In this document: piece by piece, positions 34,524 through 54,075 of the stretch | How positions within the stretch are numbered: the first letter of the stretch is position 1 | Layout: each line of letters begins with the position of its first letter | NCBI GenBank assembly: GCA_030650275.1 | Contig: JAUSEK010000019.1 | Coordinates: 144 to 64,143, forward strand | Source: Candidatus Omnitrophota bacterium | GTDB taxonomy: Bacteria; Omnitrophota; Gorgyraeia; Zapsychrales; Fredricksoniimonadaceae | Length of the DNA stretch: 64,000 bases | Direction of reading: 5' to 3' | Made by a program: the position numbers and the translations under genes | The notes under the pieces: model-generated | The model's input: the letters and a program-made list of their open reading frames with translations, nothing else | Told to the model about the DNA's origin: nothing | The model's database searches: none

Positions 34524-34526
34524 ACT

Positions 34527-35543: not shown

Positions 35544-35549
35544 TGAGAA

Positions 35550-36605
35550 ATGAATAATTGGCCAATACCAGAGTTTACAAAAAGCCAAGTCAGTAAGGCC
35601 GGGGAAACATTAATTAACCCTACCTCTCCATTACAACAGGTAATGGCATTTCGAATACTCAATAATTGGCGTTCTTGTCACGGGTATCCAATTAATACTT
35701 TTCAATCTACTTTAAGGAAGAAGCTTGTTGCGATTGGAGTTCCTAAAGCTATCGTCGCGCAACGTTTAAAAAGAACACCTTCAATTATTAGAAAATTGAA
35801 AAGATTTAAGCATATGCAGCTTTCAAGAATGCAAGATATTGGAGGACTAAGAGCAGTGGTTAGGAATTTAGAGCAACTTCGTGCTTTGGAGAGTAATTAT
35901 GCTAAAAGCCGATTTGAGCATTTTTTTGTAAGTAAAGATGATTATATTCTCTCCCCCAAGAAATCAGGGTATCGGGGGGTTCATATTATTTATAAATATC
36001 GTAATAAAAAAGTGCCTGTATACGATGGTTTATTGCTCGAACTTCAAATTAGAACTGATTTACAACACGCCTGGGCAACAGCGGTAGAGACAATTGATAC
36101 ATTTTTAGAATTTTCATTAAAAGCAAGCGAAGGACCAAGAAGATGGCTTAAGTTTTTTGCTTTAGTAGGATCAGCATTTGCGCATTTAGAAGAAACAACA
36201 CCAGTTCCTGAGTATGGGCATTTATCAAAACGTGAAACATTTCTGGAGGTTGTACAGGCGGCTAAAGGGCTTGGTGTACGTCATAAATTAAGTGCTTTCT
36301 CTATTGTTGCAAATCATATTTTGACTGATGAGAAAACCAGTAGCTACCATTATCATTTAATCGAATTAAATCCTGCTGAGAAAACTGTTAGCCTTCGATC
36401 ATTTGGGCGGGATCAGGTTGAGTTAGCTAATGAGGAATATTCCAAGAAAGAGCAGCGTATTTTAAAAGGTGAAAAGTTGCAAATTGTTCTTGTTTCAGCG
36501 GGAAATATTGAAACATTAAAGCGGGCCTATCCTAATTATTTCTTGGATACCAAGAATTTTGTTCAAAGGTTAGATGAAATTGAGACATTAGTTGGAAAAC
36601 TATAA
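35550..36605 (+). CDS. RelA/SpoT-domain (alarmone-synthetase fold) protein of 351 aa with a ~160-aa C-terminal extension. Candidate CapRel-like fused toxSAS toxin-antitoxin defense protein.
   Basis: Synthetase motifs appear in order: basic Syn1 (..AIGVPKAIVAQRLKRTPSIIRKLKR..), DIGGLRAVV, GYRGVHIIY and ELQIRTDLQHAWA. There is no separate small antitoxin ORF beside it. The gene is AT-rich and sits at the island edge next to a Type I R-M system. Confidence 0.7.
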   Translation: MNNWPIPEFTKSQVSKAGETLINPTSPLQQVMAFRILNNWRSCHGYPINTFQSTLRKKLVAIGVPKAIVAQRLKRTPSIIRKLKRFKHMQLSRMQDIGGLRAVVRNLEQLRALESNYAKSRFEHFFVSKDDYILSPKKSGYRGVHIIYKYRNKKVPVYDGLLLELQIRTDLQHAWATAVETIDTFLEFSLKASEGPRRWLKFFALVGSAFAHLEETTPVPEYGHLSKRETFLEVVQAAKGLGVRHKLSAFSIVANHILTDEKTSSYHYHLIELNPAEKTVSLRSFGRDQVELANEEYSKKEQRILKGEKLQIVLVSAGNIETLKRAYPNYFLDTKNFVQRLDEIETLVGKL

Positions 36606-36660
36606 GAAATAGTAATTCTGATCAATAATGCCCAGCGGATTTGTTAAGGGAGAAAGCATA

Positions 36661-38235
36661 ATGACTGAAAAACAAAGAAAGAAGAACATTAAAAGTATTG
36701 AAGAAACCTTGTGGGATTCGGCAAATAAGCTCCGTGGTTCGGTTGAGCCATCAGAATACAAGCATGTGGTGCTGGGACTGATATTCCTGAAGTTTGCCAG
36801 CGACAAGTTTGAGGAACGCAAGCAGGAATTGATTGCCGAGGGCAAAAAGAAGTATTTAGACATGGTGGAGTTTTACACCAGCAAGAATGTGTTCTATCTA
36901 GCTGAAATCTCACGCTGGAGTTATTTGATCGGAAATGCCAAGCAAGACGACATTGCCATAAAGATTGATACAGCCCTTTTTACCGTTGAGAAGAACAACC
37001 CTGCTCTCAAAGGCGCTTTGCCTGACAATTATTATTCACGAATGAATCTGGATGGAAGCAAGCTGGCGGCTTTGCTCGACACCATCAACAATATTAACAC
37101 CCTTAAAGACAAGCAGCAGGACATTGTAGGCAGGGTGTATGAATACTTCTTGAGTAAGTTCGCCATTGCAGAAGGAAAAGGCAAAGGAGAATTCTACACT
37201 CCCAAGAGTATTGTAAACCTGATTGCAGAGATGATTGAGCCTTACAAAGGGAAGATTTATGACCCTTGTTGCGGTTCGGGCGGCATGTTTGTGCAGAGCA
37301 TGAAGTTTATTGAAAGCCATCACGGAAATAAAAAAGACATTTCCATCTACGGGCAGGAAGCAATTACCACTACTTACAAGTTGGCAAAAATGAATTTAGC
37401 CATTCGGGGCATCAGTGCCAACCTAGGCGATGTGGCAGAGAATACTTTCTTTCGTGATCAGCACAAAGATCTGAAAGCCGATTACATCATGGCTAACCCA
37501 CCTTTCAATCAAAGCCAGTGGCGGGCAGACAACGAACTTACTAACGATCCGCGATGGGCTGGCTACGATGTTCCGCCAACAAGCAATGCTAACTATGCGT
37601 GGATTCTAAACATGGTGAGTAAACTATCTGAAAACGGTGCGGCTGGTTTTGTTTTGGCGAATGGTGCATTGAGTGCCGACGGAACGGAGAAAGCTATTCG
37701 CAGAAAATTGATCGAGAATAATTTGGTGGAAGCAATCATGGTTTTACCTAAAGGCATGTTTTATACAACACCAATTAGCGTTACACTTTGGTTTATGAAT
37801 AGAAATAAAAAAGCAAGAACTATTGAACTAAATGGTGAAATTAAGAAATATCGCAACCGAGAGAGAGAAATCTTATTTTTTGATTTAAGAAAGGTGGGGG
37901 AACCTTTTGAAAAGAAATTCGTGCAGTTTTCAGAAACCGCTATTAAGCAAATAACCGATACCTTTCATAATTGGCAACAGGCTGGTTTTGAGAAAACATA
38001 TCAGAATACGCCAGAGTTTTGCCGCAGCGTATCATTTGAGGAAATAGAGAAGAAAGATTTCTCACTGGTACCAAGCAAGTATATTGAGTTTGTAAATCGT
38101 GATGAGAATATTGACTTTGACGATAAGATGCAGAGTTTACAAACGGAATTTGCCAACCTGCTGAAAATCGAAGAAGAGTCGAAGAAAGATCTATTAATCG
38201 TTTTTAAAGAATTGGGCTATGAAATTAAATTATAA
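36661..38235 (+). CDS. hsdM: Type I restriction-modification system, DNA methyltransferase subunit.
   Basis: HsdM N-terminal domain, an N6-MTase fold with catalytic NPPF (MANPPFNQSQW), and a SAM motif. The ATG at 36661 is preceded by an AAGGGAG RBS. Confidence 0.9.
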   Translation: MTEKQRKKNIKSIEETLWDSANKLRGSVEPSEYKHVVLGLIFLKFASDKFEERKQELIAEGKKKYLDMVEFYTSKNVFYLAEISRWSYLIGNAKQDDIAIKIDTALFTVEKNNPALKGALPDNYYSRMNLDGSKLAALLDTINNINTLKDKQQDIVGRVYEYFLSKFAIAEGKGKGEFYTPKSIVNLIAEMIEPYKGKIYDPCCGSGGMFVQSMKFIESHHGNKKDISIYGQEAITTTYKLAKMNLAIRGISANLGDVAENTFFRDQHKDLKADYIMANPPFNQSQWRADNELTNDPRWAGYDVPPTSNANYAWILNMVSKLSENGAAGFVLANGALSADGTEKAIRRKLIENNLVEAIMVLPKGMFYTTPISVTLWFMNRNKKARTIELNGEIKKYRNREREILFFDLRKVGEPFEKKFVQFSETAIKQITDTFHNWQQAGFEKTYQNTPEFCRSVSFEEIEKKDFSLVPSKYIEFVNRDENIDFDDKMQSLQTEFANLLKIEEESKKDLLIVFKELGYEIKL

Positions 38236-39445
38236 CAAACTTGGTCAGTATATTAAGGAAGTAAATGAAAGAAATAGTGATTTGGCTATTACCAAACTTA
38301 TTGGCGTAAGTATGGAGAAAACATTTATTTCTTCCGTTGCTAATATTGTTGATACAGATATGTCCGTTTATAAGATTCTAAAGAAAGGACAACTTGCTTG
38401 TAAGTTGATGAGTGTAGGAAGAGATGAAAAGCTTCCTGTGGATTTATATAAAAATGATGAACCTGCCATCGTTTCGTCTGCTTATTATGTTTTTGAACCA
38501 ATAGACAACAAGATTCTATTGTCAGAATATTTATTTATGTGGTTATGCCGTCCGGAGAATGATAGATACATTGGTTTTATAAGTGGTGGAGATGTCAGAG
38601 GAGGCATATCATGGGAAACATTTTGTGATATTCCTATTAAAGTTCCCCACCCTGCAAAACAAAAAGAAATTGTAAAAGAATACAACGCCATTGTAAAACG
38701 CATAGCTTTCAACAGTCAGTTTATTCAGAAATTAGAAGAAACAGCACAGGCAATTTACAAGCAATGGTTTGTTGATTTTGAATTTCCTAATGAGAGTAGA
38801 AAGCCCTACAGATCCAATAATGGTGAAATGGAATTTAATGAAAAATTAGAAAGAGAAATCCCAAAGGGGTGGAAAGTTGATGTAATTTCAAAGCTAGTAA
38901 CGGTAAAAGATGGCACACATGATTCACCCGAACCTACAGAGGTTGGTCATCCCTTGGTTACTTCAACGCACTTGAATCTATACGACCTTTCTTTGAATGA
39001 AACCTATAATATTAGCGCAGAAGATTTCAATCAAGCTAATAAACGGAGCAAAGTTGATAAGCACGACATTCTTTTTAGTATGATTGGCACGATTGGTTTA
39101 GTTAATTATGTTTTATATGACAATATAAATTTTGCAATTAAAAATGTGGGGCTTTTTAAGACATCTGAGAGAAAAGAAGTCGCAGAATACATTCTTTATT
39201 TCTTAAAGAGTGACTATTTGAAGTTACACATTCAATCAAGTTTATTAGGAAGCACTCAAAACTATGTAACATTAGACTTTTTAAGGACAATTCCTATTTT
39301 GATTCCTTCCAATAATATTTTTATACAATTTGAAGAATGTGCTGGGAAGATTGTTAATAATATTTATTTAAAAGTAAAAGAAAACAATGCTCTTAAAACA
39401 GTAAAGAATTTATTGCTTTCAAAACTTGCGACTATAGAGAATTAA
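38219..39445 (+). CDS. hsdS: Type I restriction-modification system, specificity subunit.
   Basis: Two target-recognition domains separated by conserved helical repeats; sits between hsdM and hsdR. Confidence 0.85.
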   Translation: MKLNYNKLGQYIKEVNERNSDLAITKLIGVSMEKTFISSVANIVDTDMSVYKILKKGQLACKLMSVGRDEKLPVDLYKNDEPAIVSSAYYVFEPIDNKILLSEYLFMWLCRPENDRYIGFISGGDVRGGISWETFCDIPIKVPHPAKQKEIVKEYNAIVKRIAFNSQFIQKLEETAQAIYKQWFVDFEFPNESRKPYRSNNGEMEFNEKLEREIPKGWKVDVISKLVTVKDGTHDSPEPTEVGHPLVTSTHLNLYDLSLNETYNISAEDFNQANKRSKVDKHDILFSMIGTIGLVNYVLYDNINFAIKNVGLFKTSERKEVAEYILYFLKSDYLKLHIQSSLLGSTQNYVTLDFLRTIPILIPSNNIFIQFEECAGKIVNNIYLKVKENNALKTVKNLLLSKLATIEN

Positions 39446-39448
39446 AAA

Positions 39449-42400
39449 ATGTTCAACGAGGAATCATTAGAAAAAGCCGTCATTGAGCTATTTGCAGGGC
39501 AACAAATCCCGCACTGCAAAGGTGAGACCATTCATAAAGAAATGAGTGATGTCTTGCTTCGCGATGATTTGAAGAAGTTTTTGCTCAATCAATACGCTGC
39601 TGAAGATATTACTCAGCAGGAAATTGAAAGCATCATCCGTAGTTTAGACTTTTTTCCAAGTTCAGCTTTATACGAAAGTAATAAAGCCATCATAAAATTA
39701 TTGGCAGATGGCTTTACAATAAAGAGGGCAGACCGTAGTAAGAAGGATCTCCGCATTCATCTGATAGACTTTGTAACAGACAATAACATTTATAAGTTCG
39801 TGAACCAATTGGAAATATTAGGTTACGAAAAACGTATCCCTGACGGCATTGTTTATATCAATGGCTTGCCATTAGTAGTAATCGAATTTAAAAGCGCAGT
39901 AAAAGAAAATACCACCGTCAAAGATGCCTACACTCAGTTAACGGTTCGCTACCGTAGGGATATTCCAGAGTTGTTTAAATACAATGCTTTTTGTGTAATA
40001 AGCGATGGCGTGAATAACAAAATAGGCTCTCTTTTTGCTCAATATGATTTCTTTTACGCATGGCGGAAAGTAAATCCTGAAGATGAAGCGGTAGATGGCA
40101 TCAATTCGCTTTATAGCATGGTGCAGGGCTTGTTTAACAAACAGCGCCTAAAAGATGTAATTCGTAACTTCATTTATTTCCCTGACACAGCTAAAGACGA
40201 TATAAAGATTGTATGCCGCTATCCGCAATACTACGCCGCTAACAAATTGTTTGATAGCGTTAAGTTGAATATGCGACCACACGGAAGCGGAAAGGGCGGA
40301 ACTTATTTCGGGGCAACTGGCTGCGGCAAAAGTTTCACCATGCTATATCTCACGCGGTTGCTCATGAAAAGCCCACACTTTGCAAGCCCGACCATTGTAT
40401 TGATCACCGATCGAACTGATTTAGACGACCAGCTATCAACACAATTTACCAATGCCAAAAGTTTTATTGGCGATGAAAATGTCATCAGCGTAGAAACCCG
40501 TGCCGAACTTAAAACACTGTTACAGAACAGAAAAAGTGGCGGTGTTTTTCTTACCACCATTCACAAGTTTACAGAAAGCACTGAGTTGCTCACCGATAGA
40601 TCAAATGTGATTTGTATTTCAGACGAAGCGCACCGTTCACAGATCAACCTTGACCAAAGAATAGAAGTTACCGATCAAGGGGTAGCTAAGAAATTCGGCT
40701 TTGCCAAGTACCTGCACGATTCTTTACCACAGGCTACTTACGTGGGCTTCACCGGTACGCCTATTGATGCAACGCTCGATGTGTTTGGTGAGGTAGTAGA
40801 TGCCTACACCATGAAGGAATCAGTGAACGATGAAATTACCGTTAGAATCGTTTATGAAGGCAGAGCCGCTAAAGTATTACTCAATGAGCAGAAACTGAAA
40901 GAGATTGAAGAATATTACAAGAAGTGTTCGGAAGAAGGCGCGAATGAATATCAGGTGGAAGAAAGTAAAAGAGTCGTTACGCAAATGGAAGTTATTTTGG
41001 GCGACCCAAAGCGATTGAAATTAGTAGCCGCAGACTTTGTGGAACATTACGAAAAGCGCATTGAAGAAGGATCTACCATAAGAGGCAAAGCAATGTTTGT
41101 AGCCAGTAGCCGCCCCATTGCTTACGATTTGTATAAAGAAATCATTGCCTTACGACCAGAGTGGGCTGAAGCAAAAGAATGCGAGGAAGGCGTAGAATTG
41201 ACTGCAGAAGAAAAGAGAGAGCTAAAGCCCATTGAGAAAATCAAAATGGTCATGACTCGGCATAGAGATGATCCAAAAGAGCTGTATGACATGCTTGGAA
41301 CAAAAGAAAGCAGAAAAGAGCTAGACCGGCAATTTAAGATTACAAAATCGAATTTCAAAATTGCAATAGTCGTTGATATGTGGATAACCGGCTTTGATGT
41401 TCCATTTTTAGATACTATGTATATCGATAAGCCCATTCAGCAACATTCATTGATACAAACAATCTCCCGAGTGAATCGTGTGTACGAAGGCAAAGAAGCG
41501 GGATTGGTGGTGGACTACATTGGAATTAAAACCAATATGAATATTGCTTTGGCGAAATATACAAAAGTTGGTAGTGATGATTTTGAAGATGTAGGCAAAG
41601 CGGTTGTAATTGTAAAAGATCAGCTGGACTTGCTTGCAAAGCTCTTTCACAAGTTTGATCTACAACCTTTCTTTAACGGGACAGCAATGCAGCAGCTAAG
41701 TTGCCTTAATAACGCAGCAGAGTTTGTCCAGTTGACAGATGAAATGGAAAAGCGTTTTATTGGATTAACCAAGAAGTTACGATCTGCGTATAGCCTTTGC
41801 TGCAGCAGCGAAGGGCTTAGCGCTAAAGAAAGAGACCACATCCATTTTTATTTTGCCGTTAAAGCCATTATCCACAAATTAACAAAAGGCGATGCGCCCG
41901 ATACGGCACAGATGAATGACAAAGTGAGGGAAATGATTAAAGAGGCCTTGATCAGCGATGGCGTAGAAGAGATTTTCAAGCTAGATAAGAACGACCCAAA
42001 GAACAGTACAGATATTTTCAGCGATGAATACATGGCAAAGATAGAGAAAATTACATTGCCGAATACTAAAATCAAGTTGCTTCAGAAATTGCTGATTCAA
42101 GCAATTGAGGAATTTAAGAAGGTAAACAGAATTAAAGGTGTTGATTTTACCAAGAAGATGAAAAAGCTGGTTGATCTGTATAATGAAAGAAAAGATTTTC
42201 AGGCAATGCAAAGCGATGTGTTGGACGATGTAGCCGAACAGTTTGCGAAGCTGTATAGAGATTTGCAGAAGGAGCGCAACTCATTCATGGATTTAGGAAT
42301 TGATTTTGAAGAAAAGGCATTTTATGACATTCTGAAAGCCATTGCACTGAAATACAAGTTTGAATATCCCGAAGATAAATTGATTGTACTTTCACAAGCA

Positions 42401-44380: not shown

Positions 44381-44388
44381 GATTCAGT

Positions 44389-44492
44389 TGGAAACAATTT
44401 CACAATCATAAGGATGTGGCGTTGTCCCTAGTTTTGCAGGCGGCGGAGGTGCTGGAGCATTTCTAGTGGAAATCGCCGCAAGAGGTCAAGAA
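44389..44492 (+). pseudogene. Degenerate fragment of a MazG-like gene, corresponding to residues ~20-54 of the intact copy at 49341, with an in-frame TAG.
   Basis: About 88% nucleotide identity to 49397-49502. Its translation KQFHNHKDVALSLVLQAAEVLEHF*WKSPQEVK compares with the intact KQFHNHKDVALSLVLEAAEVLEHFQWKSPQEVK. Confidence 0.8.
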
Positions 44493-44766
44493 AGTAGCTA
44501 AGAGTTTACTTGCGACGCTTAAACATGGGCAGTGAGTGCTTGATTGGTGTAAAAGACAACAAACGCGAGCAGCTGTCCGTGTGGCTATTGGCCGGGTCTC
44601 GGATGAATTATCGCAACGTTATGGTTGCGATCTTTTTGAATCAAAGTGTGAGGTCATTTATTGACACATTTATGATAGTTATTTTGGTGAGGGAAGAAGT
44701 TATTTTGTAAGAAATTGAGTTTTTATATGAAAAATGCAACAGACCTAAACTATATAAAGACTCGCG

Positions 44767-47700
44767 ATGATTCCTAAATTCAACAAAGGCGACCAGGTTC
44801 AGCGTACAAACGACTCCAGTCGTATCGGGGTTATTGTTGATGTGGATGTTTTACATGGTGGAATTCAATATTATAAAGTTTTTTTTGATGGAGAAGAACG
44901 TCCGGTTCTTTCAGAGTTTGATATTCGGCCCCACATAGAGGGGGTTTCGCCAGTGGATGTCTTAAGGCTGGGGCACTTGGGATTTTTCGAAGAATTTCAG
45001 TTGAACATCCTTTATCAGAAGCTTTCTAAGATTAATATCCTTACAAATAACCTTTATTCATTTAATGCCTCCCGAACCAATTTTTATCCGTATCAGTTCA
45101 AGCCACTTCTCAAGTTTCTGGATTCTTTCAACAATCGCGTTCTTATTGCGGATGAGGTAGGTCTTGGTAAAACTATTGAGGCGGGTCTTATTTTTCAGGA
45201 ATTAAAAGCGAGGCAAAATCTCCAACGGATTCTTGTCGTTTGCCCGTCAGGTCTGAAAGACAAATGGAAGATGGAAATGGAACATCGCTTTGGGGAAGAA
45301 TTTAATATTTGGCGTCGGCCAGACCTCATGCGTTTCTTGGATAAGCTTGAGGAGTCTTATGCGGTTCAGTCCTTGAAGGTTATTATTCCACTTGAAACTA
45401 TTCGCTACAGGGGTGTAGTTGAACGAATAGAAGAGATCGGTCCTGCATTTGATTTGGTGATCATTGATGAAGCGCATCATATGCGAAATCAGACAACGCT
45501 GAACCATAGGACTGGAAAAGTTTTGAGCGATTTTGCAGATGCTATGGTTATGTTAACGGCAACCCCAGTGCAAATGGGGAATAGAGATCTTTTTAATTTA
45601 TTGCATATTTTAGATGATGAGAACTTTTCAAATCATCAAGTTTCGGAGGAACTCTTTACTCAAAATGAACCTGTTGTCTTGGCCCAAACATGTTTGAGCC
45701 ATATTCCCGCAGATCTTGAAAGAGCTGGGGAGTTGTTAACCGATTTTTTTGCGGATTTAGATAAGGCAAGGAAGCCTTATCAGCATAATCTTTGTTTGGA
45801 TGTTATTGATCGGATGAAGCAGCTCAAGGCAGTTGATCAGCGATTGCCAGAATATCGTCGCCAGTTAGTCGATATTCAGAGGAATGTGTCGGAATTAAAC
45901 TTTCTAGGACATATTCTAAATCGCACTCGCAAGAGAGATGTTAAAGAAAAGATCGTGTTACGACAGGCTAAAACTGTGAAGGTGGATCTATCTGATAAGG
46001 AGAAGGTGTTTTATAAGGCTGTAGAGGCCTTTGTGCGGGCGGATGCAAAGAGGCGGGGCATTGATTCAAGGGTGATTGGATGGATGCTGATCAATCCGTT
46101 AAGACGTACGGCTTCGTGTATATCAGCTATGGTGGAGCATTATAAGCAGCATTTAGATAATTCTGAAGTTGAGGATGATGATCCTCTAGATGATGAGAGT
46201 GATGAGAAAACAGAGTCAAAAAGCTCAGGTTTTGAATTGGCGCGTAATAATCTTTTGGAAATTATTAACACTTGGGGAGGGTCTACTGAAGATACGAAAT
46301 TTCAAAAGTTTATGGAGGCTATTCAGAAGTTAAAGAAAGAGGATGGGAAGCTCAAAATAATGGTTTTTGCTTTTTATAAGGCAACCTTACGTTATCTTTC
46401 TAAAAAATTGAAAGCTGCGGGGATAAAAAATCTTATTATTTCAGGAGACGTGCCTTATAAAGAGCGAGCGGCATTGATTAATCAATTTAAGGACGAAAAT
46501 TCTTCTATAGAAGTGTTGTTGTCATCAAGGGTCGGCAGTGAAGGTTTAGATTTTCAATTTTGCGATACCATGGTTAATTATGATCTTCCATGGAACCCAA
46601 TGGAGGTTGAGCAGAGAATAGGACGCCTTGATCGTATTGGGCAGCGCTCCCAAAAGATCAGAATTTATAACATGTCTTTGGCGGATACAATAGAGGATCG
46701 GGTGCTTATGCGGCTTTATGAACGGATCGGGATTTTTGAACGTTCGATAGGAGGATTGGAGCCTATTATGGGCGCGCAGATCCAGGAACTTGTTACTGAG
46801 GTGTTGACCAAAGAGCTTTCTGCTAAAGAGCAGGAGGATCTTGTTGAACGCAAGGCATTGATTTTGGAGAAGAAAGAACGGGAGATGCGTGAGCTGGAGG
46901 AAAAATCGGCAAAATTTATTGGGGTAGATACTTATTTTGAAGATGAGATTGCAAGAATACAGAAAACAAGAAGATATATAACTCCGCAGCAGTTGAAAAA
47001 GTTTATTCTTTATTTTTTAGAGCGGTTCTTCCCAAAGACTCGCTTTGAATATTCCGAAAAGACTTGCCTAGGGAAGATTGTGGCTGATCAAGCGTTGCAA
47101 GGTTTTATCTCAAAATGTGAAAAGTCACATGATTTATCAAGATTTTATTCTACGGATGGGGTTGAAATTACCTTTGATTCTGATACGGCTTTGCAGAATC
47201 CCAGTATAGAGTTTCTAAATAATACGCATCCACTAACAGCTCTTATCTTAAGGTATTATCAAGAAAATCCGATTCATCACAATAATGCTTATTTTGTTAA
47301 ACTTGATACGAATATTGCGCCTAAGGGGAAATATTTTTTTTATGTATTCCGACTTAAAATCGAAGCGGCGCGACACACCAACACGATTGAGACAGTTTTT
47401 ATTGATGAAACCCTTAATGAGATTTGCCCAGGAGAAGATTCCGAGGTTTTGTTAGGTGAGATGCTAGAGAGCGGGCGGAGATCGGAAGATGGAAGCTCTT
47501 TTTCTATTGATCCAGGTTATTTGGATCAGTCCCATCGTATGGCGCTAGGGACATTTTTAAAGAATAAGGAACAAAGAAAATCTGATGCGGAACGGAGCAA
47601 TAACCTTTTGATTGAAGGTCGAGTAGCCAGTATTCGATTAAATTTTGAAAAGAAGATTAAACAGAAACAGAAATTATTAGAAAGGGGTATTCAGGGGAAT

Positions 47701-47847
47701 AAGAAAAAGAGTTATCTTACGATGCTAGAGGGGGAGATTAGGAAATATAGAAATCAAATGGAGGCTGGCATCACTTTGGAGGAGACCAAACGGAGCGTCA
47801 GTTGTTCGCATGTTGAAATTGCTGCAGGGATTCTGGAGATCGTGTAG
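44767..47847 (+). CDS. SNF2-family (Swi2/Snf2, RapA/HepA-like) helicase/translocase of 1026 aa with an N-terminal Tudor/SH3-like domain.
   Basis: Motif I DEVGLGKTIEAG, motif II DEAHHMRN, and a helicase-C region (..LSSRVGSEGLDFQFCDTMVNYDLPWNP...QRIGRLDRIGQ). The N-terminus KGDQVQR...RIGVIVDV....YYKVFFDG resembles the RapA N-terminal Tudor-like fold. Confidence 0.85.
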   Translation: MIPKFNKGDQVQRTNDSSRIGVIVDVDVLHGGIQYYKVFFDGEERPVLSEFDIRPHIEGVSPVDVLRLGHLGFFEEFQLNILYQKLSKINILTNNLYSFNASRTNFYPYQFKPLLKFLDSFNNRVLIADEVGLGKTIEAGLIFQELKARQNLQRILVVCPSGLKDKWKMEMEHRFGEEFNIWRRPDLMRFLDKLEESYAVQSLKVIIPLETIRYRGVVERIEEIGPAFDLVIIDEAHHMRNQTTLNHRTGKVLSDFADAMVMLTATPVQMGNRDLFNLLHILDDENFSNHQVSEELFTQNEPVVLAQTCLSHIPADLERAGELLTDFFADLDKARKPYQHNLCLDVIDRMKQLKAVDQRLPEYRRQLVDIQRNVSELNFLGHILNRTRKRDVKEKIVLRQAKTVKVDLSDKEKVFYKAVEAFVRADAKRRGIDSRVIGWMLINPLRRTASCISAMVEHYKQHLDNSEVEDDDPLDDESDEKTESKSSGFELARNNLLEIINTWGGSTEDTKFQKFMEAIQKLKKEDGKLKIMVFAFYKATLRYLSKKLKAAGIKNLIISGDVPYKERAALINQFKDENSSIEVLLSSRVGSEGLDFQFCDTMVNYDLPWNPMEVEQRIGRLDRIGQRSQKIRIYNMSLADTIEDRVLMRLYERIGIFERSIGGLEPIMGAQIQELVTEVLTKELSAKEQEDLVERKALILEKKEREMRELEEKSAKFIGVDTYFEDEIARIQKTRRYITPQQLKKFILYFLERFFPKTRFEYSEKTCLGKIVADQALQGFISKCEKSHDLSRFYSTDGVEITFDSDTALQNPSIEFLNNTHPLTALILRYYQENPIHHNNAYFVKLDTNIAPKGKYFFYVFRLKIEAARHTNTIETVFIDETLNEICPGEDSEVLLGEMLESGRRSEDGSSFSIDPGYLDQSHRMALGTFLKNKEQRKSDAERSNNLLIEGRVASIRLNFEKKIKQKQKLLERGIQGNKKKSYLTMLEGEIRKYRNQMEAGITLEETKRSVSCSHVEIAAGILEIV

Positions 47848-49309
47848 AGTTTTTTTTCAAAAAAAGTCGTTATCTGGTCAGAAAGTCAAACCGGAAGATC
47901 AGACCGAAAGTCCTGCCGCTGCGCCTGCAATTATCAAGACATCATCTGGGAAGCTTCCCATTCATGTTGGTATTGATTTTGGAACAAGTTGTTCTAAAGC
48001 GTGTTATCAAATCCAAGATGGAAGGGAGAAGGTTTACTTAATTGATTTTAAACATCAGTTAAAGTCTTTTCCTTCATACGTTATTCCTTCAGTTCTTATT
48101 GGTGATGAGCAAAATCGGATATATATAGGTGAAGAGGCAGGTGAGGCTGTAGAAGCAGGAAAATGGGGATTAGGGTTAAGAAATTTTAAAACACTCTTAG
48201 CGTCAGTTCAGAATGAGGATTTTGTTGACAAAGTTTCCGCATCTCATTTCAAGGAAAATTTACAACTATTAGGTCTTGATAAGGAGGGCGTTGGAGTATC
48301 AGAAGTTACGTCTCTTTATGTTGCCTATATGATGCACCGATGCAGAGATTTTCTAAAGCGTCAATATGTAGGCAGAGAATTGCATATTAATTATAATGTG
48401 TGTATTCCTATCGATTATGCTGAAGATAATCTCGTAAGAAAAGACTTTGAAAAAATGTTGGCTGTAGCTCAGGAACTCTACAGATTTTGGGAACGAGAGA
48501 AAGGTGAGTCGCGCAGTTTATTACGTCTTGCCAGTGAATTAAAAAGCCAGTGTGTATATGATGAAACTCAAATGAATGTTTTTGCTATTCCTGAGGCTGT
48601 CGCAGAACTGGTTGGTTATCGTAAGTCTGCGGATAGGGAGGCAGGCTTGTACGCTCTTATTGATATTGGTTCGGGAACAACCGACGTATCGATTTTTAGA
48701 CTTGACCGAGGTTTGAAAGAGCGTGCTGTGTGGTTGTCATCAGATGCTATACCTATGGGCATGTATCAATTAGAGAAATTAGTTGTGAAAGCTTTGAGGA
48801 AACAAGGACATGATGATTCGTTGGGTGAAGTTTATAGAGCTTTCGAGAATTTTAAGGAAATTTCAACCGGGCTTCAGGAGGATGTGTTCTTAAGAATAAG
48901 AAAGAGGATTAGGGCTTTTATTAGAAGTGATGAGTATAAAAGACCTTGGAGATCTGCTCATATCAAATTGAGGAAACAAAGAAGAGAGAGTTTGGATGAT
49001 ATAAAGATTGTTTTTCTCGCAGGAGGAGGAGCAAAGATTGCCTTGGCCAAAGGCATGAATTTTCTTTTTAGTTCATCGCCGCTTGCTTCATCGGCGGTTT
49101 CTAAAAAGCCCTATAACTTGTCAGCGTTGTCCTGTTCTCCCAATCTAGAGGGTGCTTTGGTTTCTGATTTTTGGCGCCTATCCGTGGCTTATGGATTAAG
49201 TTTTCCAGCACCAAAGTTGGGAGAATATAAGCTTCCGAAAGATTTTCCAGAGGATAATCCGCCTTCTTTACCAATACAGGATTGGCCGGATAGGGATGAT
49301 ACGCGGTAA
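47810..49309 (+). CDS. Hsp70/actin-fold (ASKHA superfamily) ATPase of 499 aa. Its start overlaps the 3' end of the SNF2 gene by 38 nt.
   Basis: Phosphate-1 motif HVGIDFGTSCSKA (compare DnaK IGIDLGTTNS), a connect motif VFAIPEAVAELVGY, and phosphate-2 ALIDIGSGTTDVSIF (compare DnaK DLGGGTFDVS). Confidence 0.75.
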   Translation: MLKLLQGFWRSCRVFFQKKSLSGQKVKPEDQTESPAAAPAIIKTSSGKLPIHVGIDFGTSCSKACYQIQDGREKVYLIDFKHQLKSFPSYVIPSVLIGDEQNRIYIGEEAGEAVEAGKWGLGLRNFKTLLASVQNEDFVDKVSASHFKENLQLLGLDKEGVGVSEVTSLYVAYMMHRCRDFLKRQYVGRELHINYNVCIPIDYAEDNLVRKDFEKMLAVAQELYRFWEREKGESRSLLRLASELKSQCVYDETQMNVFAIPEAVAELVGYRKSADREAGLYALIDIGSGTTDVSIFRLDRGLKERAVWLSSDAIPMGMYQLEKLVVKALRKQGHDDSLGEVYRAFENFKEISTGLQEDVFLRIRKRIRAFIRSDEYKRPWRSAHIKLRKQRRESLDDIKIVFLAGGGAKIALAKGMNFLFSSSPLASSAVSKKPYNLSALSCSPNLEGALVSDFWRLSVAYGLSFPAPKLGEYKLPKDFPEDNPPSLPIQDWPDRDDTR

Positions 49310-49340
49310 AAAGAAATAGAGTGACAGGCGCTAATTTTTA

Positions 49341-49688
49341 ATGGCAGAAATCAAAACAATCACCGCAAAAATAAGAAAATTCCGCGATGAGCGGGATTGG
49401 AAGCAATTCCACAATCATAAGGACGTGGCGCTGTCTTTGGTCTTAGAGGCGGCAGAAGTGCTGGAGCATTTCCAGTGGAAATCGCCGCAAGAGGTCAAGG
49501 AACATGGCGAGGCCTGCAGGTCCGAGATCTCGGATGAGCTGGCGGATGTTGCCGTGTATTTATTTGAACTCGCGGATAATCTCGGGATCGATTTGTCAAA
49601 GGCCATTGATATCAAAATGAAGAAAAATGCCCTGAAATACCCGGTTGAGAAAGCCAGGGGCAGGCATACGAAATACAACAATCTTTAG
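49341..49688 (+). CDS. MazG-like nucleoside triphosphate pyrophosphohydrolase (small all-alpha NTP-PPase).
   Basis: EEA.E..E motifs in ..LEAAEVLEHF.. and ..ELADVAVYLFELA.. characteristic of MazG/HisE-type NTP-PPases; 115 aa. Confidence 0.75.
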   Translation: MAEIKTITAKIRKFRDERDWKQFHNHKDVALSLVLEAAEVLEHFQWKSPQEVKEHGEACRSEISDELADVAVYLFELADNLGIDLSKAIDIKMKKNALKYPVEKARGRHTKYNNL

Positions 49689-49692
49689 GTAG

Positions 49693-49775
49693 AAATTAAA
49701 CATTTGAAAATCGCGCCAGGAATCATTAGAATCATCCTTAGTCAAGCAGGGCTTCCCCGGCCGTAGTCTGTTTGA
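49693..49775 (+). promoter_or_regulatory. Repeat unit R1: near-consensus sigma70 promoter (TTGAAA-17nt-TAGAAT, with -35 at 49704-49709 and -10 at 49727-49732) plus a conserved leader GTCAAGCAGGGCTTCCCCGGCCGTAG, upstream of the ORF6N gene.
   Basis: Read directly; a 17-nt spacer. Copies R2 (50399-50482) and R3 (51801-51900) match at roughly 85-95%. Confidence 0.65.
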
Positions 49776-49828
49776 CAAAAATCCCCTGTAGTAAATCTAT
49801 TAACTTTTAATCTACAAGGGGGTATTCC

Positions 49829-50371
49829 ATGTTCAAGAAATCAGAAACTGTCGCATCGGTCGAGATCATTCAAAACAAGATCTTTTTGATCCGGGGCCGG
49901 AAGGTCATGCTGGATAGGGATCTAGCGGAATTATACGGAGTGCCGACAAAAAGGTTTAATGAACAGGTCAAGAGAGGCATAAAGAGGTTTCCAGCAGATT
50001 TTATGTTTCAATTGACCCAGGAAGAATATGAAAACTTGAGGTCGCAAATTGCGACCTCAAGTTGGGGAGGAAGACGGTACCTGCCTTATGTATTTACCGA
50101 TTACGGTGTAGCAATGCTTTCCAGCGTGTTAAATAGTGACCGAGCTGTTGAGGTTAATATACAGATCATGCGGGCTTTTGCCAGATTGAGGGAGATGATT
50201 ATTTCCCACAAAGATCTGGCTCGCAAGATCGAAGACCTGGAGCGGAATTTTAAAGACCATGATAAGAAGTTTGTTGAGGTTTTTGAGGCGATCAGGCGGT
50301 TGCTGCAGAAAAAAGAAGAGCCGCCCAAGCCCAAGATACCGATCGGGTTTCATCCGCCAATGAAGCCGTAA
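49829..50371 (+). CDS. ORF6N-domain protein (phage antirepressor-type DNA-binding N-domain) with a coiled-coil C-terminus.
   Basis: IRGRKVMLDRDLAELYGV.TKRFNEQVKRGIKRFPADFMFQLTQEE matches the ORF6N domain consensus. Confidence 0.75.
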   Translation: MFKKSETVASVEIIQNKIFLIRGRKVMLDRDLAELYGVPTKRFNEQVKRGIKRFPADFMFQLTQEEYENLRSQIATSSWGGRRYLPYVFTDYGVAMLSSVLNSDRAVEVNIQIMRAFARLREMIISHKDLARKIEDLERNFKDHDKKFVEVFEAIRRLLQKKEEPPKPKIPIGFHPPMKP

Positions 50372-50398
50372 AAAATATAAAACTCCAGCCGTTGGTTG

Positions 50399-50482: not shown

Positions 50483-50617
50483 GTAAATTCCCCTCCAAGT
50501 GAGGACATTGATACGATTCTTCAAGGTGCCAATTTGGCTCCCCATGCGGAGCATCAGTCTTCTTGATACAATTTGACAATACTACTTATGAGTAGTATAC
50601 TTTCAGTGAGGCCAAAG

Positions 50618-51313
50618 ATGAAAAACAAGATCGCCTATATAAAGAAAGAGCAGAAAAGAATCACCGGATTAGTCGCTCGCAAATTCAAGGACTATTACTT
50701 GACCGGCGGCACGGCGCTGGCTTTTTATGTCCGGCACCGTTTCTCGGAGGATTTAGATTTTTTTAGCCAAAAGTATGACAAGAAAACACCGGAAAAGATC
50801 ATGGCCTATATTTCCCAAGAAACCGGATTTGATTATCAACTGGATGCCGAGCAGGATGATCCTAAATTAATTCCGATGAAGGTTTATTTTATGGAATTAA
50901 AGGGTGGTGAAGTATTGAAGATAGATTTTGTTAAGGATTATGTCGCAAATGTCCATCCAATCAAGAACGGTATGCACTCCATGGATGATATTTACTACAG
51001 GAAGATCTGTGCGGCGATAGGGGGCCAGGAAAAACAAGGCGAGGCAGGGCAGGTCGTGGCCACGGGCCGGCGAAGCGTTAAAGACCTGTTTGATATTTAC
51101 TATCTTTCTTCTCATTACAAGTCGTTGGCGGATTTTTTCTTTGAATATTTTGCGTACAACCATACAGAACGCCTTGAAGCCTGGTACAGAGGGTTTGACC
51201 GGACAGAAGCAAAATTGGCTTTGATGGACCTGGTTCCCAAGGTGGACACGGGGAAGGTTTTTAAGTATTTGGATGGGCAAATATTAAAACTGATCCCTGG
51301 AAAACTGTTGTGA
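50618..51313 (+). CDS. AbiEii/AbiGii-family nucleotidyltransferase toxin (DUF1814).
   Basis: GGTALAFYVRHRFSEDLDFF matches the AbiEii NTase motif (GG[ST]AL ... R.S.D[IL]D). The start was taken at MKNKIAYI (50618). Confidence 0.7.
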   Translation: MKNKIAYIKKEQKRITGLVARKFKDYYLTGGTALAFYVRHRFSEDLDFFSQKYDKKTPEKIMAYISQETGFDYQLDAEQDDPKLIPMKVYFMELKGGEVLKIDFVKDYVANVHPIKNGMHSMDDIYYRKICAAIGGQEKQGEAGQVVATGRRSVKDLFDIYYLSSHYKSLADFFFEYFAYNHTERLEAWYRGFDRTEAKLALMDLVPKVDTGKVFKYLDGQILKLIPGKLL

Positions 51314-51320
51314 GGCATCT

Positions 51321-51788
51321 ATGAAGATCAATTGGTTGTGGGACACAACGCTGAACAAGGTGCGGGTCAAGAAGATCCTGCATAATGAAAGAGACCCGCG
51401 TTTTTACATTTATGCGGAGAAGTTGTTTTCCCGTGTCGACGATCCCAAGGAGGCCTTTAGTTATGTTTCTAAAGAAGCTTTTTGCCGTCAATGGCCTGTT
51501 GTCAGAAAAAGGATCGCAAAAGATGCCTGGGCAAGAGAGAGGGCGGGTTTCTGGCAGGGTATCTATGAACAGACGTTGAGTATCCCGCCAGAGCGATTAA
51601 GTGTTGCCCAACGGATCAAAGAATTAAGGGTCCATATGGGGTATACCCAAAAGGAAATGGCTAAAAGATTGGGTGTTATTCAGCAGTACGTTTCCCGTTT
51701 GGAAGCCGGCCGGGAGAATTTGACCTTGGATACCTTAAAACGGATAGCCCAAGTTTTTGATAAAGATCTGATCGTTCAATTGAATTAA
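51321..51788 (+). CDS. XRE-family HTH protein (C-terminal HTH_XRE, novel N-terminal domain); candidate cognate antitoxin or regulator for the upstream AbiEii.
   Basis: The C-terminus QRIKELRVHMGYTQKEMAKRLGVIQQYVSRLEAGRENLTLDTL is a classic HTH_3. The gene starts 8 nt after the AbiEii stop. Confidence 0.6.
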   Translation: MKINWLWDTTLNKVRVKKILHNERDPRFYIYAEKLFSRVDDPKEAFSYVSKEAFCRQWPVVRKRIAKDAWARERAGFWQGIYEQTLSIPPERLSVAQRIKELRVHMGYTQKEMAKRLGVIQQYVSRLEAGRENLTLDTLKRIAQVFDKDLIVQLN

Positions 51789-51800
51789 TTCGAGTGGCAC

Positions 51801-51900
51801 GTTATGAGGTTTGGGTGAGGGAAGTTTTTGAAAACTGCACCAGGAATCATTAGGATCATTCTTAGTTAAGCAGGGCTTCCCCGGCCATAGTTTGCTTGCT
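51801..51900 (+). promoter_or_regulatory. Repeat unit R3: TTGAAA (51828-51833) -17nt- TAGGAT (51851-51856) plus the conserved leader, upstream of the Bro-N gene. It is preceded by the motif TTATGAGGTTTGGGTGAGGG.
   Basis: Read directly. Confidence 0.6.
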
Positions 51901-51945
51901 CCCCGTAGCACAAGCGTTATAATCTATTAAACAGAAGGGGGCATC

Positions 51946-52788
51946 ATGTCTCAAGAAATGATCTCAACCAAAATTGCCATTTTTAAGGGTAAACAGATCA
52001 GGAGAACCATTCATAATAATGAATGGTGGTTTTCAGTTGTGGATATCGTAGGGTCTCTGACGGATAGTGAAAATCCCAGGGATTATTGGTATAAAATGAA
52101 GGTTCGTGAAAAAGATGATGCGGGTGTTGAACTGTCGACATTTTGTCGACAGTTGAAATTAGTCGCACCGGATGGCAAGAATAGGGAAACTGACTGCGCT
52201 GATACAGAGGGCATATTCCGTATTATCCAATCCATCCCATCACCCAAAGCTGAACCTTTTAAGCGTTGGCTGGCCAAGGTCGGTTATGAGCGTATTCAAG
52301 AGATAGAAAATCCCGAGCTTGCGGCTAAACGGATGCGGTTGCTCTATAAGCTAAAGGGATATAGCGATGACTGGATCGAAAAGCGCATGCGCGGCATTGT
52401 CATCCGGGAAGAATTAACGGATGAATGGCAGAAGCGTGGCGCACAGGAAGACAAAGATTACGAGGTTTTGACCGCCGAAATAGCCAAAGCCACGTTTGGC
52501 ATCACTCCTAGTGAGTACAGGAAGTTAAAAGGGTTAAAGCGTGAAAATCTGCGGGATCATATGGATGATTTTGAGCTGATCTTTACGATGCTGGGAGAGC
52601 GTTCTACAACGGAAATCCACCGCACCGAAGATTCCAAAGGTATGGCTAAATTAAAAGATGACTCAAAAGCCGGTGGGGACATTGCCGGGGGCGCCCGCCA
52701 ACAGTTGGAAAAAAGGCTTGGGCGGTCGGTTGTTTCAAAAGAGAATTATTTAAATAAGCCACAGAATAAGAAGTTGCCTAGGAAATAA
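51946..52788 (+). CDS. Bro-N domain protein (phage antirepressor-like N-domain) with a charged C-terminal region.
   Basis: The N-terminus ..FKGKQIRRTIHNNEWWFSVVDIVGSL.. fits the Bro-N fold consensus (F.F....iR.....e.wF...Dv...LG). Confidence 0.6.
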   Translation: MSQEMISTKIAIFKGKQIRRTIHNNEWWFSVVDIVGSLTDSENPRDYWYKMKVREKDDAGVELSTFCRQLKLVAPDGKNRETDCADTEGIFRIIQSIPSPKAEPFKRWLAKVGYERIQEIENPELAAKRMRLLYKLKGYSDDWIEKRMRGIVIREELTDEWQKRGAQEDKDYEVLTAEIAKATFGITPSEYRKLKGLKRENLRDHMDDFELIFTMLGERSTTEIHRTEDSKGMAKLKDDSKAGGDIAGGARQQLEKRLGRSVVSKENYLNKPQNKKLPRK

Positions 52789-52794
52789 AAAAAT

Positions 52795-53016
52795 ATGTCT
52801 AAACTACAGGATTTGATCGAATGGGATTATTTGGGGTCGCATTATAGCGTGTACATCAAGCATTTTACGGACGATGACGGCAAGAGGGGGATGACGATGG
52901 TTTTTGAGGACGTGACCCGGGAAAAGGTCACGGAAATGACCGTTCCCTCGCGCAAATTCCCCGCGTTCCTGAAAGCGGTTAACGGCGGTGCAGAGCCGTA
53001 TAGAGGGATCTTTTGA
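52795..53016 (+). CDS. Hypothetical small protein.
   Basis: A 73-aa ORF 6 nt after the Bro-N stop; no motif recognised. Confidence 0.3.
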   Translation: MSKLQDLIEWDYLGSHYSVYIKHFTDDDGKRGMTMVFEDVTREKVTEMTVPSRKFPAFLKAVNGGAEPYRGIF

Positions 53017-53203
53017 GGTCCACCTATTTTTACCCGGCAATTTGATTGACAGGGGGTTGCCCGGTGATATATTGAAAACAGATGTATCGGAGAGTCCTGT
53101 GTTGAAGGGGGAACCTGGACTATAAAAAAAGTAAAACCTTCGCAAGGTCAGATGGCTGACTCGGCGGGGTTTTTTTATTTATATCAAACGAAAGGACAGG
53201 ATT

Positions 53204-53953
53204 ATGGAAACGGGAAAGATCTTCAGGGATTCACAGATCATTGTTTTGGGTGTTTGCATTGCGGTGGCCACCGTCGCGGCGAGTTTGATATTGGCCAAAG
53301 GGTTTATGGCGGTGGTCAAATTCAACCAGCAGGTGGTGACGGTGACCGGGTCGGCGCAAAAGAACATTAAAAGCGATAAAATTGTCTGGAAGGCGATCTT
53401 CAGCCGCCGCGAACGCGACCTGCCCAGCGGCTATAAAAAGGTCCAGGAAGACCTGGATAAGGTGAAAAAATATCTGATGAACCAGGGTGTGGTGGATAGC
53501 GAGATCATTATTCAGCAGATCGTCAGCGACAAAGTATACAAGAAAACTTCGCAGGGCAAGGACACCAATGAAATTGATTATTACGCCTTGATCCAGCCCA
53601 TTGAGGTGTGGTCCAATCAGGTGGATAAGGTGACGGCGGTGTCGCGCGGCTCAACGGAGCTGATCAATCAAAACATCGCCTTTGAATCCGGCGCGCCGGA
53701 GTATTACTATACAAAACTCGACGAACTTAAGATTGAAATGCTGGCGTTGGCCACCGAGAACGCGAAACGGCGGGCCGAGAACATGGTCAAGGCCACGGGC
53801 AATAAGATCGGGTTTATCCGTTCGGCGAGGATGGGGATATTCCAGATCACGCCGGTCAATTCCACCGAGGTTTCCGACTACGGCGTGAATGACACCACAT
53901 CGCTGGAGAAAAAAGTGACGGCGGTGGTGAATGCGGGGTTTAGTATTGAATGA
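53204..53953 (+). CDS. SIMPL-domain (DUF541) periplasmic or membrane-anchored protein.
   Basis: An N-terminal TM/signal anchor, then ..VTVTGSAQ.., the typical first strand of SIMPL domain proteins. Recognised by overall pattern. Confidence 0.5.
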   Translation: METGKIFRDSQIIVLGVCIAVATVAASLILAKGFMAVVKFNQQVVTVTGSAQKNIKSDKIVWKAIFSRRERDLPSGYKKVQEDLDKVKKYLMNQGVVDSEIIIQQIVSDKVYKKTSQGKDTNEIDYYALIQPIEVWSNQVDKVTAVSRGSTELINQNIAFESGAPEYYYTKLDELKIEMLALATENAKRRAENMVKATGNKIGFIRSARMGIFQITPVNSTEVSDYGVNDTTSLEKKVTAVVNAGFSIE

Positions 53954-54016
53954 AAATCTTTGTGAAAACGCATCCCAAGGCCAGGAAAATACAGGTGCTT
54001 GCCAGGGATGCGGCCC

Positions 54017-54075
54017 ATTATGAGGTTTGGGTGAGGGCCAGGCGGTCATTGAGATCGATGATTAGTTTACCAAAA
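54017..54075. repeat. Degenerate fourth copy of the left part of the R repeat (ATTATGAGGTTTGGGTGAGGG ... TCATTGAGATCGATGATTAG). It lacks the promoter hexamers and abuts the murB stop.
   Basis: Read directly. A fifth partial relative (TTTTGGTGAGGGAAG) lies at about 44680-44695. Confidence 0.55.

Follow-up and report, generated by a model that had tools for sequence, protein, structure and literature searches.

A probable horizontally acquired defence island in the gap between moaA and murB of an Omnitrophota lineage

We analysed 64,000 nucleotides from the genome of a Candidatus Omnitrophota bacterium (NCBI GenBank assembly GCA_030650275.1, contig JAUSEK010000019.1, positions 144 to 64,143 of the forward strand). 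This whole stretch is called the window in the following, and all coordinates without a locus label count from its first letter. Our subject is a variable region of 18,523 bp at 35544-54066, which fills the gap between the stop codon of moaA (35543) and the stop codon of murB (54067) and carries several unrelated defence systems side by side. The genes and features of the region and the two core genes that flank it are the following, with the Pfam domains and PADLOC defence models that they match:

34527..35543, + strand: moaA, a radical-SAM enzyme of molybdenum cofactor (Moco) synthesis (Pfam Radical_SAM and Mob_synth_C); left flanking core gene
35544..54066, no strand: the whole variable region, delimited by GC content, by breakpoints against close strains and by its absence from at least 24 related loci
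35550..36605, + strand: CapRel-type fused toxin-antitoxin (Pfam RelA_SpoT; PADLOC PDC-S33, 403 bits, full length)
36628..42589, + strand: type I restriction-modification (R-M) operon, with hsdM at 36628-38235, hsdS at 38219-39445 and hsdR at 39449-42589
42734..44380, + strand: GmrSD/BrxU-like protein (Pfam GmrSD_N, 100 bits; PADLOC PDC-M55C and HEC-05)
44388..44493, + strand: fragment of a MazG pseudogene directly after the GmrSD-like gene, equivalent to MazG nucleotides 57-162 and with an in-frame TAG
44767..47847, + strand: RapA/DrmD-like SNF2 ATPase of 1026 aa (Pfam SNF2-rel_dom and Helicase_C), first gene of a pair
47810..49309, + strand: standalone ATPase of 499 aa resembling the nucleotide-binding domain (NBD) of Hsp70, overlapping the SNF2 stop codon (weak Pfam MreB-like_C match)
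49341..49688, + strand: MazG-like NTP pyrophosphohydrolase (Pfam MazG-like), an internal anchor present in all four closest strains
49691..49787, + strand: promoter-leader repeat of about 97 nt, copy 1, upstream of the ORF6N gene
49829..50371, + strand: ORF6N-domain protein (Pfam ORF6N, 126 bits; PADLOC candidate PDC-S05, 210 bits)
50400-50494, + strand: promoter-leader repeat, copy 2, upstream of the AbiEii gene
50573..51788, + strand: AbiEii-family nucleotidyltransferase (50573-51313) and Xre-type helix-turn-helix protein HTH_3 (51321-51788)
51802..51821 and 54018-54037, + strand: 20-nt direct repeat TTATGAGGTTTGGGTGAGGG in two exact copies, of which the second lies 29 nt before the murB stop codon
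51818-51903, + strand: promoter-leader repeat, copy 3, upstream of the Bro-N gene
51946..52788, + strand: Bro-N domain protein (Pfam Bro-N; PADLOC candidate PDC-S13, 394 bits, full length)
52795..53019, + strand: open reading frame (ORF) of 73 aa (52795-53016); the last 68 nt (52952-53019) form a second anchor
53204..53953, + strand: SIMPL/DUF541 protein (Pfam SIMPL), in the third variable slot, 53020-54066
54067..54996, - strand: murB (Pfam MurB_C and FAD_binding_4); right flanking core gene

The coding capacity of the island lies entirely on the + strand, and the minus-strand ORFs of at least 80 aa are all shadows of + strand genes. Beyond murB, the rhodanese gene and moaE are on the - strand as well. 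A first-pass annotation of this DNA, made from the sequence alone, had listed the island genes from a toxSAS-like RelA/SpoT protein to Bro-N; Pfam and PADLOC recover every gene it named, on the + strand and in the same order, and we could add the 73-aa ORF, the SIMPL/DUF541 gene, the MazG fragment, the three repeats of about 97 nt and the 20-nt direct repeat, which it had missed. The block it had placed at 35545-54075 is real, with exact edges at the two stop codons, that is at 35544 and 54066.

The region differs clearly from its surroundings in base composition. Its GC content is 0.406, compared with 0.539 in the left flank and 0.543 in the right flank, and sub-blocks can be told apart: about 0.38-0.40 at 35544-49340, about 0.45 at 49341-52951 and 0.50 at 53020-54066. 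In a profile of 1-kb steps the flanks lie at 0.52-0.58, and the values are 0.33-0.43 from about 35.5 to 49.3 kb, 0.43-0.47 up to about 53 kb and 0.49 up to 54 kb. The GC content of third codon positions (GC3) parts the blocks more sharply: it is 0.66-0.71 for host genes, 0.26-0.46 for the genes from the CapRel-type to the Hsp70-like protein and 0.47-0.54 for the right-hand cassettes from ORF6N through Bro-N. MazG (0.60), the 73-aa ORF (0.65) and SIMPL (0.70) are host-like in this respect. The GC profile agrees with the earlier description of an AT-rich part up to about 49.3 kb, followed by intermediate GC up to about 53 kb.

For comparison with relatives, we scanned collections of genomes and metagenomes with MoaA and obtained 160 loci; labels such as L014, L018, L081, L082, L083 and L155 stand for the related loci and metagenomic contigs that were compared. 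In about 45 related Omnitrophota loci the synteny around the gap is kept, with sufBCD-sufS-nifU-moaA on one strand, murB-(rhodanese)-moaE-ispH on the opposite strand and ispG after that. The gap itself is nearly empty in at least 24 related loci, where moaA and murB are convergent and less than 120 bp apart. In 13 loci only 2-4 nt lie between the convergent stop codons when the sequence is read (tblastn gives a spacing of 8-10 nt, which excludes the stops), and in 11 further loci the distance is below 120 bp. Together with the synteny, these near-empty sites support the suspicion that moaA and the murB-rhodanese-moaE block were ancestrally contiguous. Other loci carry inserts of 0.4-8 kb, and the 18.5 kb of the window are the largest insert seen. 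The gene set of the window was found at the moaA/murB gap in none of the approximately 45 loci, and the CapRel, R-M, GmrSD and SNF2/Hsp70 genes lie at this locus in no relative examined. Relatives with the same content at a similar GC, which had been named beforehand as the sign of an ancient core region, were thus not seen among these loci. The cargo of the gap is of horizontal origin.

Two further observations concern the vicinity of the gap. The rhodanese gene (54996-55313, between murB and moaE) is absent in L082, the closest relative with this flank, and present in several more distant Omnitrophota, a small presence/absence polymorphism beside the hotspot. Furthermore, large secreted proteins of 877-1651 aa and of native GC, one or two per gap, occur in many distant Omnitrophota, at L086 (10148-17170), L093 (4908-9863), L110 (1576-5196), L119 (11084-14650) and L018 (12911-17080), and most of them share an N-terminal motif near LPAPGTMV..SP.FEPALIKGL.VH.

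The closest strains are represented by four metagenomic contigs (L081, L082, L083 and L155), with flanks that are 87-93% identical to the window at the nucleotide level. Homology to them stops at the end of moaA, at 35541-35559; the C-terminus of MoaA (...EMYHIGG*) is intact in all strains aligned and divergence starts directly past the stop codon. It returns only at three places: at MazG with the repeat that follows it (49337/49346-49831), at a 68-nt segment (52952-53019) and at the murB stop codon, where L082 and L083 pick up exactly at 54067. The cargo is thus placed stop to stop. The MazG genes of all four strains have a nucleotide identity of 90-95% to that of the window. The 68-nt segment is common to L082 and L083, with an identity of 91% to positions 11548-11614 of L082.

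Between these conserved anchors the strains carry different genes. Between moaA and MazG we find in L082 and L083 a DpnI-like methyl-directed enzyme (PADLOC mREase_II, 355 bits) and an ORF of 126 aa, in L155 a PDC-S41 protein (949 bits) and a DUF2075 helicase fused to an S24 peptidase, and in L081 a DUF2075-S24 protein and small HTH genes. Past MazG, the place of ORF6N, AbiEii-HTH and Bro-N in the window is taken in L082 by a small ORF with a CopG-antitoxin-like protein after it and, in addition, by a metallophosphatase. The cargo of the close strains has a GC content of 0.37-0.41, as opposed to 0.53-0.59 for the host. The hotspot therefore consists of three variable slots parted by conserved anchors, and cargo has been replaced at the level of strains. 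The earlier proposal of a mosaic island inserted after moaA is supported, with the refinement that the slots do not amount to one insertion.

A trace of this replacement lies within the cargo itself. The MazG fragment shares 86.8% identity with the corresponding part of the resident MazG (49397-49502) and 91% with the MazG copies of L082 and L155. Since it is nearer to these copies than to the resident one, the fragment appears to be the allele of another strain, and we read it as a recombination scar, trapped when a second block of cargo joined. Such a scar amid the cargo suggests that the cargo was stacked serially. Furthermore, a 28-nt sequence is common to the gap between hsdR and the GmrSD-like gene and to the region directly upstream of MazG.

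Defence islands as a concept reportedly go back to Makarova et al. in 2011. Positions 35544-54066 combine several adjacent and unrelated systems, a site that is empty or differently filled in relatives, and an atypical composition. We conclude, with a probability of about 0.8, that they are a horizontally acquired defence island in an integrase-less hotspot, which occupies the 2-4-nt spacer between the moaA and murB stop codons in one Omnitrophota lineage. Strains would exchange cargo through recombination events that are anchored in moaA, MazG and murB or the internal anchors. The route may be homologous recombination, or homology-facilitated illegitimate recombination with one homologous end, after uptake of DNA and with no recombinase encoded by the element. 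The block of CapRel, R-M and GmrSD genes would have come from the moaA-MazG slot of another strain and would have been stacked before the SNF2/Hsp70-MazG block that was already there, with the MazG scar as a remnant. Insertions would persist only if both core genes stay intact, and selection for intact core genes would explain the exact stop-to-stop placement.

The locus resembles the core defence hotspots of Pseudomonas aeruginosa (PMC10250203), in which unrelated systems are clustered between core genes, content varies between strains, the site is empty in some genomes and composition is atypical. It differs from them in its Omnitrophota host, in the spacer of a few nucleotides between convergent stop codons, in the anchors that divide it into three slots and in the absence of any mobile-element gene.

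It could be argued that the region is instead a decayed site-specific integrative element, for example a prophage, a satellite, an integrative and conjugative element or an integrative and mobilisable element, which later lost its integrase. Bro-N and ORF6N domains are typical of accessory genes of prophages and satellites, all genes are co-oriented, and the exact 20-nt direct repeat surrounds the segment from Bro-N to SIMPL. This repeat brackets the last 2.2 kb (the third promoter-leader copy, Bro-N, the 73-aa ORF and SIMPL); the window contains no further copy of it, the close relatives lack it, and only 1 of 200 shuffles gives any match at up to 2 mismatches. Against such an element, we were not able to find any integrase or recombinase, excisionase, replication, structural or transfer gene in 35544-54066 by ORFs, Pfam or PADLOC, and there is no unannotated ORF of integrase size in the island. 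No tRNA was found, no Rfam family matches anywhere in the window, and no repeats were found at the two outer edges of the island. The ORF, Pfam/PADLOC and tRNA scans hence agree with the first-pass annotation that integrase and edge tRNA are absent. The 9-10 bp inverted match that it had reported at the edges is in fact one of 8 bp (ATAGGTGG/CCACCTAT), whose second arm (53020) lies within the island, 1 kb away from its edge. The window has 3 occurrences where 1.1 are expected, and a count of 3 is reached in 5 of 100 shuffles; being at chance frequency and having an arm 1 kb inside, the match is not an edge feature. The only similarity that a megablast search of the island against phages and plasmids gave lies within hsdM, part of which matches an unannotated phage contig at 72%. 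In addition, the four strains with different cargo between the same internal anchors are left unexplained by one insertion. We therefore consider a decayed element unlikely.

The segment at 49.7-52.8 kb invites another comparison. The three repeats of about 97 nt are 77-91% identical and occur nowhere else in the window. As direct repeats between short cassettes of one or two genes in a single orientation, one of which is a toxin-antitoxin-like pair, they might be seen as attC sites of an integron-like cassette array (a cluster of attC sites lacking integron-integrases, CALIN). The repeats, however, show no more folding than shuffled sequences do, whichever strand is taken (z from -1.6 to +0.06), and by eye they have no RYYYAAC/GTTRRRY core sites. 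There is also no IntI according to Pfam and PADLOC; note that the attC sites were judged without a dedicated attC model. Each copy carries instead the sigma-70-like hexamers TTGAAA-17-TAGAAT/TAGGAT, followed by a ribosome-binding site and a start codon, so that the repeats behave as promoter-leaders. One copy follows MazG in L081, L082 and L083, and the repeat core had no match in a scan of viral contigs. We thus take the repeats for one promoter-leader used several times rather than for attC sites, and we regard a cassette array as very improbable.

One might also suppose that the region is ancient and vertically inherited, and that its low GC reflects a local mutational or selective bias. 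The near-host GC3 of MazG, the 73-aa ORF and SIMPL (0.60-0.70) fits with this, as does the fact that MazG and the promoter-leader are common to the closest strains. It is contradicted by the site being empty in at least 24 relatives, by the absence of the CapRel, R-M, GmrSD and SNF2/Hsp70 genes from this locus in every relative, and by their GC3 of 0.26-0.46 compared with 0.66-0.71. Inheritance of this kind is refuted for 35544-49340 and partly viable only for MazG and 52795-54066; for the region as a whole we give it hardly any credence. Finally, a chimera of assembly or binning, in which a low-GC contig was joined to an Omnitrophota contig, might be suspected in a metagenome-assembled genome with an abrupt change of GC at 35544, and its chances are negligible, since an independent Logan assembly (SRR13727527) is 100% identical over 34496-46605 (12.1 kb, from moaA through SNF2), which excludes an artefact for the left junction, both flanks lie on one contig of 82 kb and low-GC cargo between moaA and MazG is the arrangement in relatives too.

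Several points weigh against a defence island exchanged by recombination. Four of the PADLOC models matched here, PDC-S05, PDC-S13, PDC-S33 and PDC-M55C, are candidates resting on genomic association only, and neither SIMPL nor MazG is a defence gene. In distant Omnitrophota the gap usually holds a large secreted protein of native GC, which argues for a general variable spot that is not dedicated to defence. Among the sequences searched no donor with identical cargo was found, and the CapRel/R-M/GmrSD block occurs only in the source organism. The proposed recombination is deduced from the positions of breakpoints and from one scar, and the 20-nt direct repeat could mark a separate, possibly site-specific event for the last 2.2 kb. 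The divergence of the flanks near the island (about 87-88% identity in moaA compared with about 92% further out) is suggestive but confounded by indels and gene-specific constraint. We also tried the sliding identity of the flanks to L082 as a signature of recombination, and gave it up because indels make it too noisy.

Turning to the single systems, the first gene of the island encodes in one polypeptide of 351 aa a toxSAS RelA/SpoT synthetase domain and a C-terminal autoinhibitory sensor domain. The earlier label of a toxSAS-like RelA/SpoT protein was correct and can be refined to a fused CapRel-type protein. In CapRelSJ46 the key residues are R79, R116 and Y155, together with a YXXY motif for autoinhibition and neutralisation (PMC9712102). 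A HMMER alignment to the CapRelSJ46 structures 7ZTB and 9ERV covers the full length (query residues 8-341, E 4e-46) and keeps the equivalents of the ATP-coordinating arginines R79 and R116 and of Y155 in the G-loop. The YXXY motif is kept too, with AYPNYF (Y327/Y330) in the query opposite AYPNYF (Y352/Y355) in CapRelSJ46. Like CapRelSJ46 (7ZTB; PMC9712102), the protein thus combines the toxSYNTH residues and the YXXY motif in a single polypeptide, of 351 aa compared with 373 aa. It differs in that the overall identity is about 35-40% (by reading the alignment) and that the host is neither an enterobacterium nor a prophage. By homology, a phage protein would relieve the autoinhibition, upon which the enzyme would pyrophosphorylate tRNA and halt translation. 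Since the sensor (pseudo-zinc-finger domain, pseudo-ZFD) is the most gapped region of the alignment, and at this level of identity, the specificity for the trigger is not inferable.

The type I R-M system is complete in genes and domains. HsdM has the Pfam domains N6_Mtase and HsdM_N, HsdS has Methylase_S with two target recognition domains, and HsdR has HSDR_N, SWI2_SNF2, T1R_D3 and T1RH-like_C; the respective PADLOC scores are 490 bits (MTase_I), 195 bits (Specificity_I) and 1200 bits (REase_I). The GmrSD-like protein that follows is a putative type IV, modification-dependent nuclease, with a clear DUF262 (ParB-like NTPase) domain at the N-terminus and a divergent C-terminus. Its best match in the PDB, at the N-terminus only, is 7P9K ('DUF262 domain-containing protein'), which we take to be BrxU. 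The C-terminus reads ...EDDHFFP...NNILNIHFLNGDEN, which by its sequence resembles a His-Me finger, and has no Pfam DUF1524 match.

The next two genes form a pair. The SNF2 protein matches the PADLOC DrmD model PDLC02623 over its full length (547 bits) and the BrxHI|BrxHII model with 243 bits, and its best PDB match is RapA (E 2e-42), with an alignment that extends into the N-terminal region of RapA. In the C-terminal 327 aa we found neither a conserved PD-(D/E)xK motif nor a recognisable nuclease domain, and a word-index search with this region gave only 3 fragments. Its Hsp70-like partner is identical to a hypothetical protein of a Candidatus Omnitrophota metagenome-assembled genome. For this partner, the AlphaFold2 model (pLDDT 86.8) has the NBDs of Hsp70 proteins (BiP, DnaK) as top Foldseek matches in the PDB, with E 2e-13. 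A profile search (E<=1e-30) gathered a family of about 1,600 representatives at 50% identity, in which all members with a name from their source are called 'hypothetical'. The residues D56, K127, E262, D285 and D292 are invariant in the family, and the motifs GLDFGTSxTK, IDxGAGTTDVS and GGG are present; the spacing of the five residues is Hsp70-like in a comparison with Hsc70. PADLOC gives only a remote match among family members (PDC-M61B, 25-40 bits), and a scan of viral contigs with the Hsp70-like protein gave nothing.

The two genes stand side by side in other genomes as well. We compared six further loci, which are diverged (24-40% identity) and come from bacteria and one Methanosarcinaceae archaeon. 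In all six a SNF2 gene for 1020-1050 aa lies directly upstream of the Hsp70-like gene, usually overlapping it, and the SNF2 protein of the archaeal locus is 43% identical to ours over the full length. The ATPase motifs are kept in both proteins, and the neighbours of the pair across these loci are hsdR, GmrSD_N, EcoRII-Vsr-Dcm, NERD-UvrD, DrmAB-like and TOTE genes. As a separate observation, in L162 (9650-17653) the pair adjoins a NERD-UvrD helicase and a pair of a DrmB-like gene (MZB/DUF1998) and a large helicase, which hints at an occasional association with DISARM-like modules.

We also considered GmrSD_N, SNF2 and Hsp70 as one three-gene unit, as the archaeal locus has a GmrSD_N gene upstream too. 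This was rejected: the two GmrSD proteins are alike only in the DUF262 N-terminus (34% over 99 aa) and the MazG scar lies between the GmrSD-like and SNF2 genes of the window, so that we treat them as neighbours and not as one system.

RapA-like SNF2 proteins in neighbourhoods of defence genes are known as DrmD of class 1 DISARM, BrxHII of type 3 BREX and ArmA of ARMADA II (PMC12839542, PMC13463889). According to Pfam and PADLOC, the DrmD-like SNF2 stands alone in the island, with no DrmA, DrmB, DrmC or DrmM/methylase, and the partner genes of BREX (PglX, PglZ, BrxC) and ARMADA (ArmB/C/D) are absent from it. Its invariable partner here is the standalone Hsp70-NBD-like ATPase, which is found in none of the three systems. 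An Hsp70-fold ATPase within a defence-type operon is also known from CnuD of type III CoCoNuT (PMC11090510). Unlike CnuD, the protein has no McrB/McrC partner, and only an NBD-like part is recognised, without substrate-binding domain and HEAT repeats; its catalytic residues are apparently intact, whereas those of CnuD are described as degenerate (PMC11090510). No system in PADLOC v2.0.0 (2023) matches the pair, and among the papers that a literature search on a defence pair of SNF2 and Hsp70 yielded, which deal with CoCoNuT, BREX and ARMADA only, none describes it. Judging from gene order and motifs, the pair is a plausible uncatalogued candidate for a defence module. That it is an uncatalogued two-gene anti-phage system in its own right is a more tentative proposal, to which we give less than even odds. 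If so, one may speculate that the SNF2 translocase is gated by the Hsp70-like subunit, which would sense or clamp a protein or nucleoprotein of the phage; the translocase might then act on invading DNA by stripping off or stalling complexes of replication or transcription.

Of the cassettes to the right of MazG (which itself has no PADLOC match), the ORF6N protein has homologues with 64-65% identity in L018, in the same gap, and in L014. The AbiEii protein scores 51 bits with Pfam and 41 bits with PADLOC, and the HTH_3 protein 58 bits with Pfam; the start of the AbiEii gene is likely near 50618, with a promoter-like site at 50573-50601. The AbiE type IV toxin-antitoxin system has an AbiEii-family nucleotidyltransferase as well, but here the promoter-leader repeat takes the place upstream where an AbiEi antitoxin is absent, and an Xre-type HTH_3 protein lies downstream. 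The two genes thus look like a non-canonical AbiE-like pair. The 73-aa ORF has no Pfam match, and SIMPL has no PADLOC match and no homologue in the related loci. The right-hand 1.3 kb with these two genes are variable among strains and host-like in composition, and are not defence. We note a near-consensus extended -10 promoter (TTGACA-16-TG-TATATT) at 53046-53073, about 130 nt upstream of the SIMPL start, which leaves a long leader.

Elsewhere in the window we made three observations. An element of 47 nt occurs at 34478-34523 and at 21799-21845, with 91% identity and a palindrome CATTCCCGA-N9-TCGGGAATC. It lies directly upstream of moaA, where it is kept in L082, and upstream of a radical-SAM methylthiotransferase (ORF 22147-23460), and has no Rfam match; Fe-S enzymes near the suf/nifU genes may have it in common as an operator or leader. 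A repeat of 35 nt (6566-6600 and 30643-30677, 97% identity) lies at unrelated intergenic or gene-end sites, one of them at a sufB/sufC-like junction. Two adjacent ORFs of about 1,010 aa at 38-6084, one with TPR repeats, are internally repetitive and have a strong AT skew.

As a defence island in itself, the locus is of an ordinary and well-known kind. Omnitrophota are uncultured and often ultra-small bacteria whose interactions with phages have been little described. The locus suggests that they maintain a classical defence hotspot with a fast turnover and without mobile-element machinery, and the anchors together with the MazG scar give a concrete and testable picture of how cargo may be stacked by recombination between strains. 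The pair of SNF2 and Hsp70-like genes, which recurs in bacterial and archaeal defence neighbourhoods, is flagged as a candidate, and the moaA/murB gap of this lineage would be a place to look for new defence systems.

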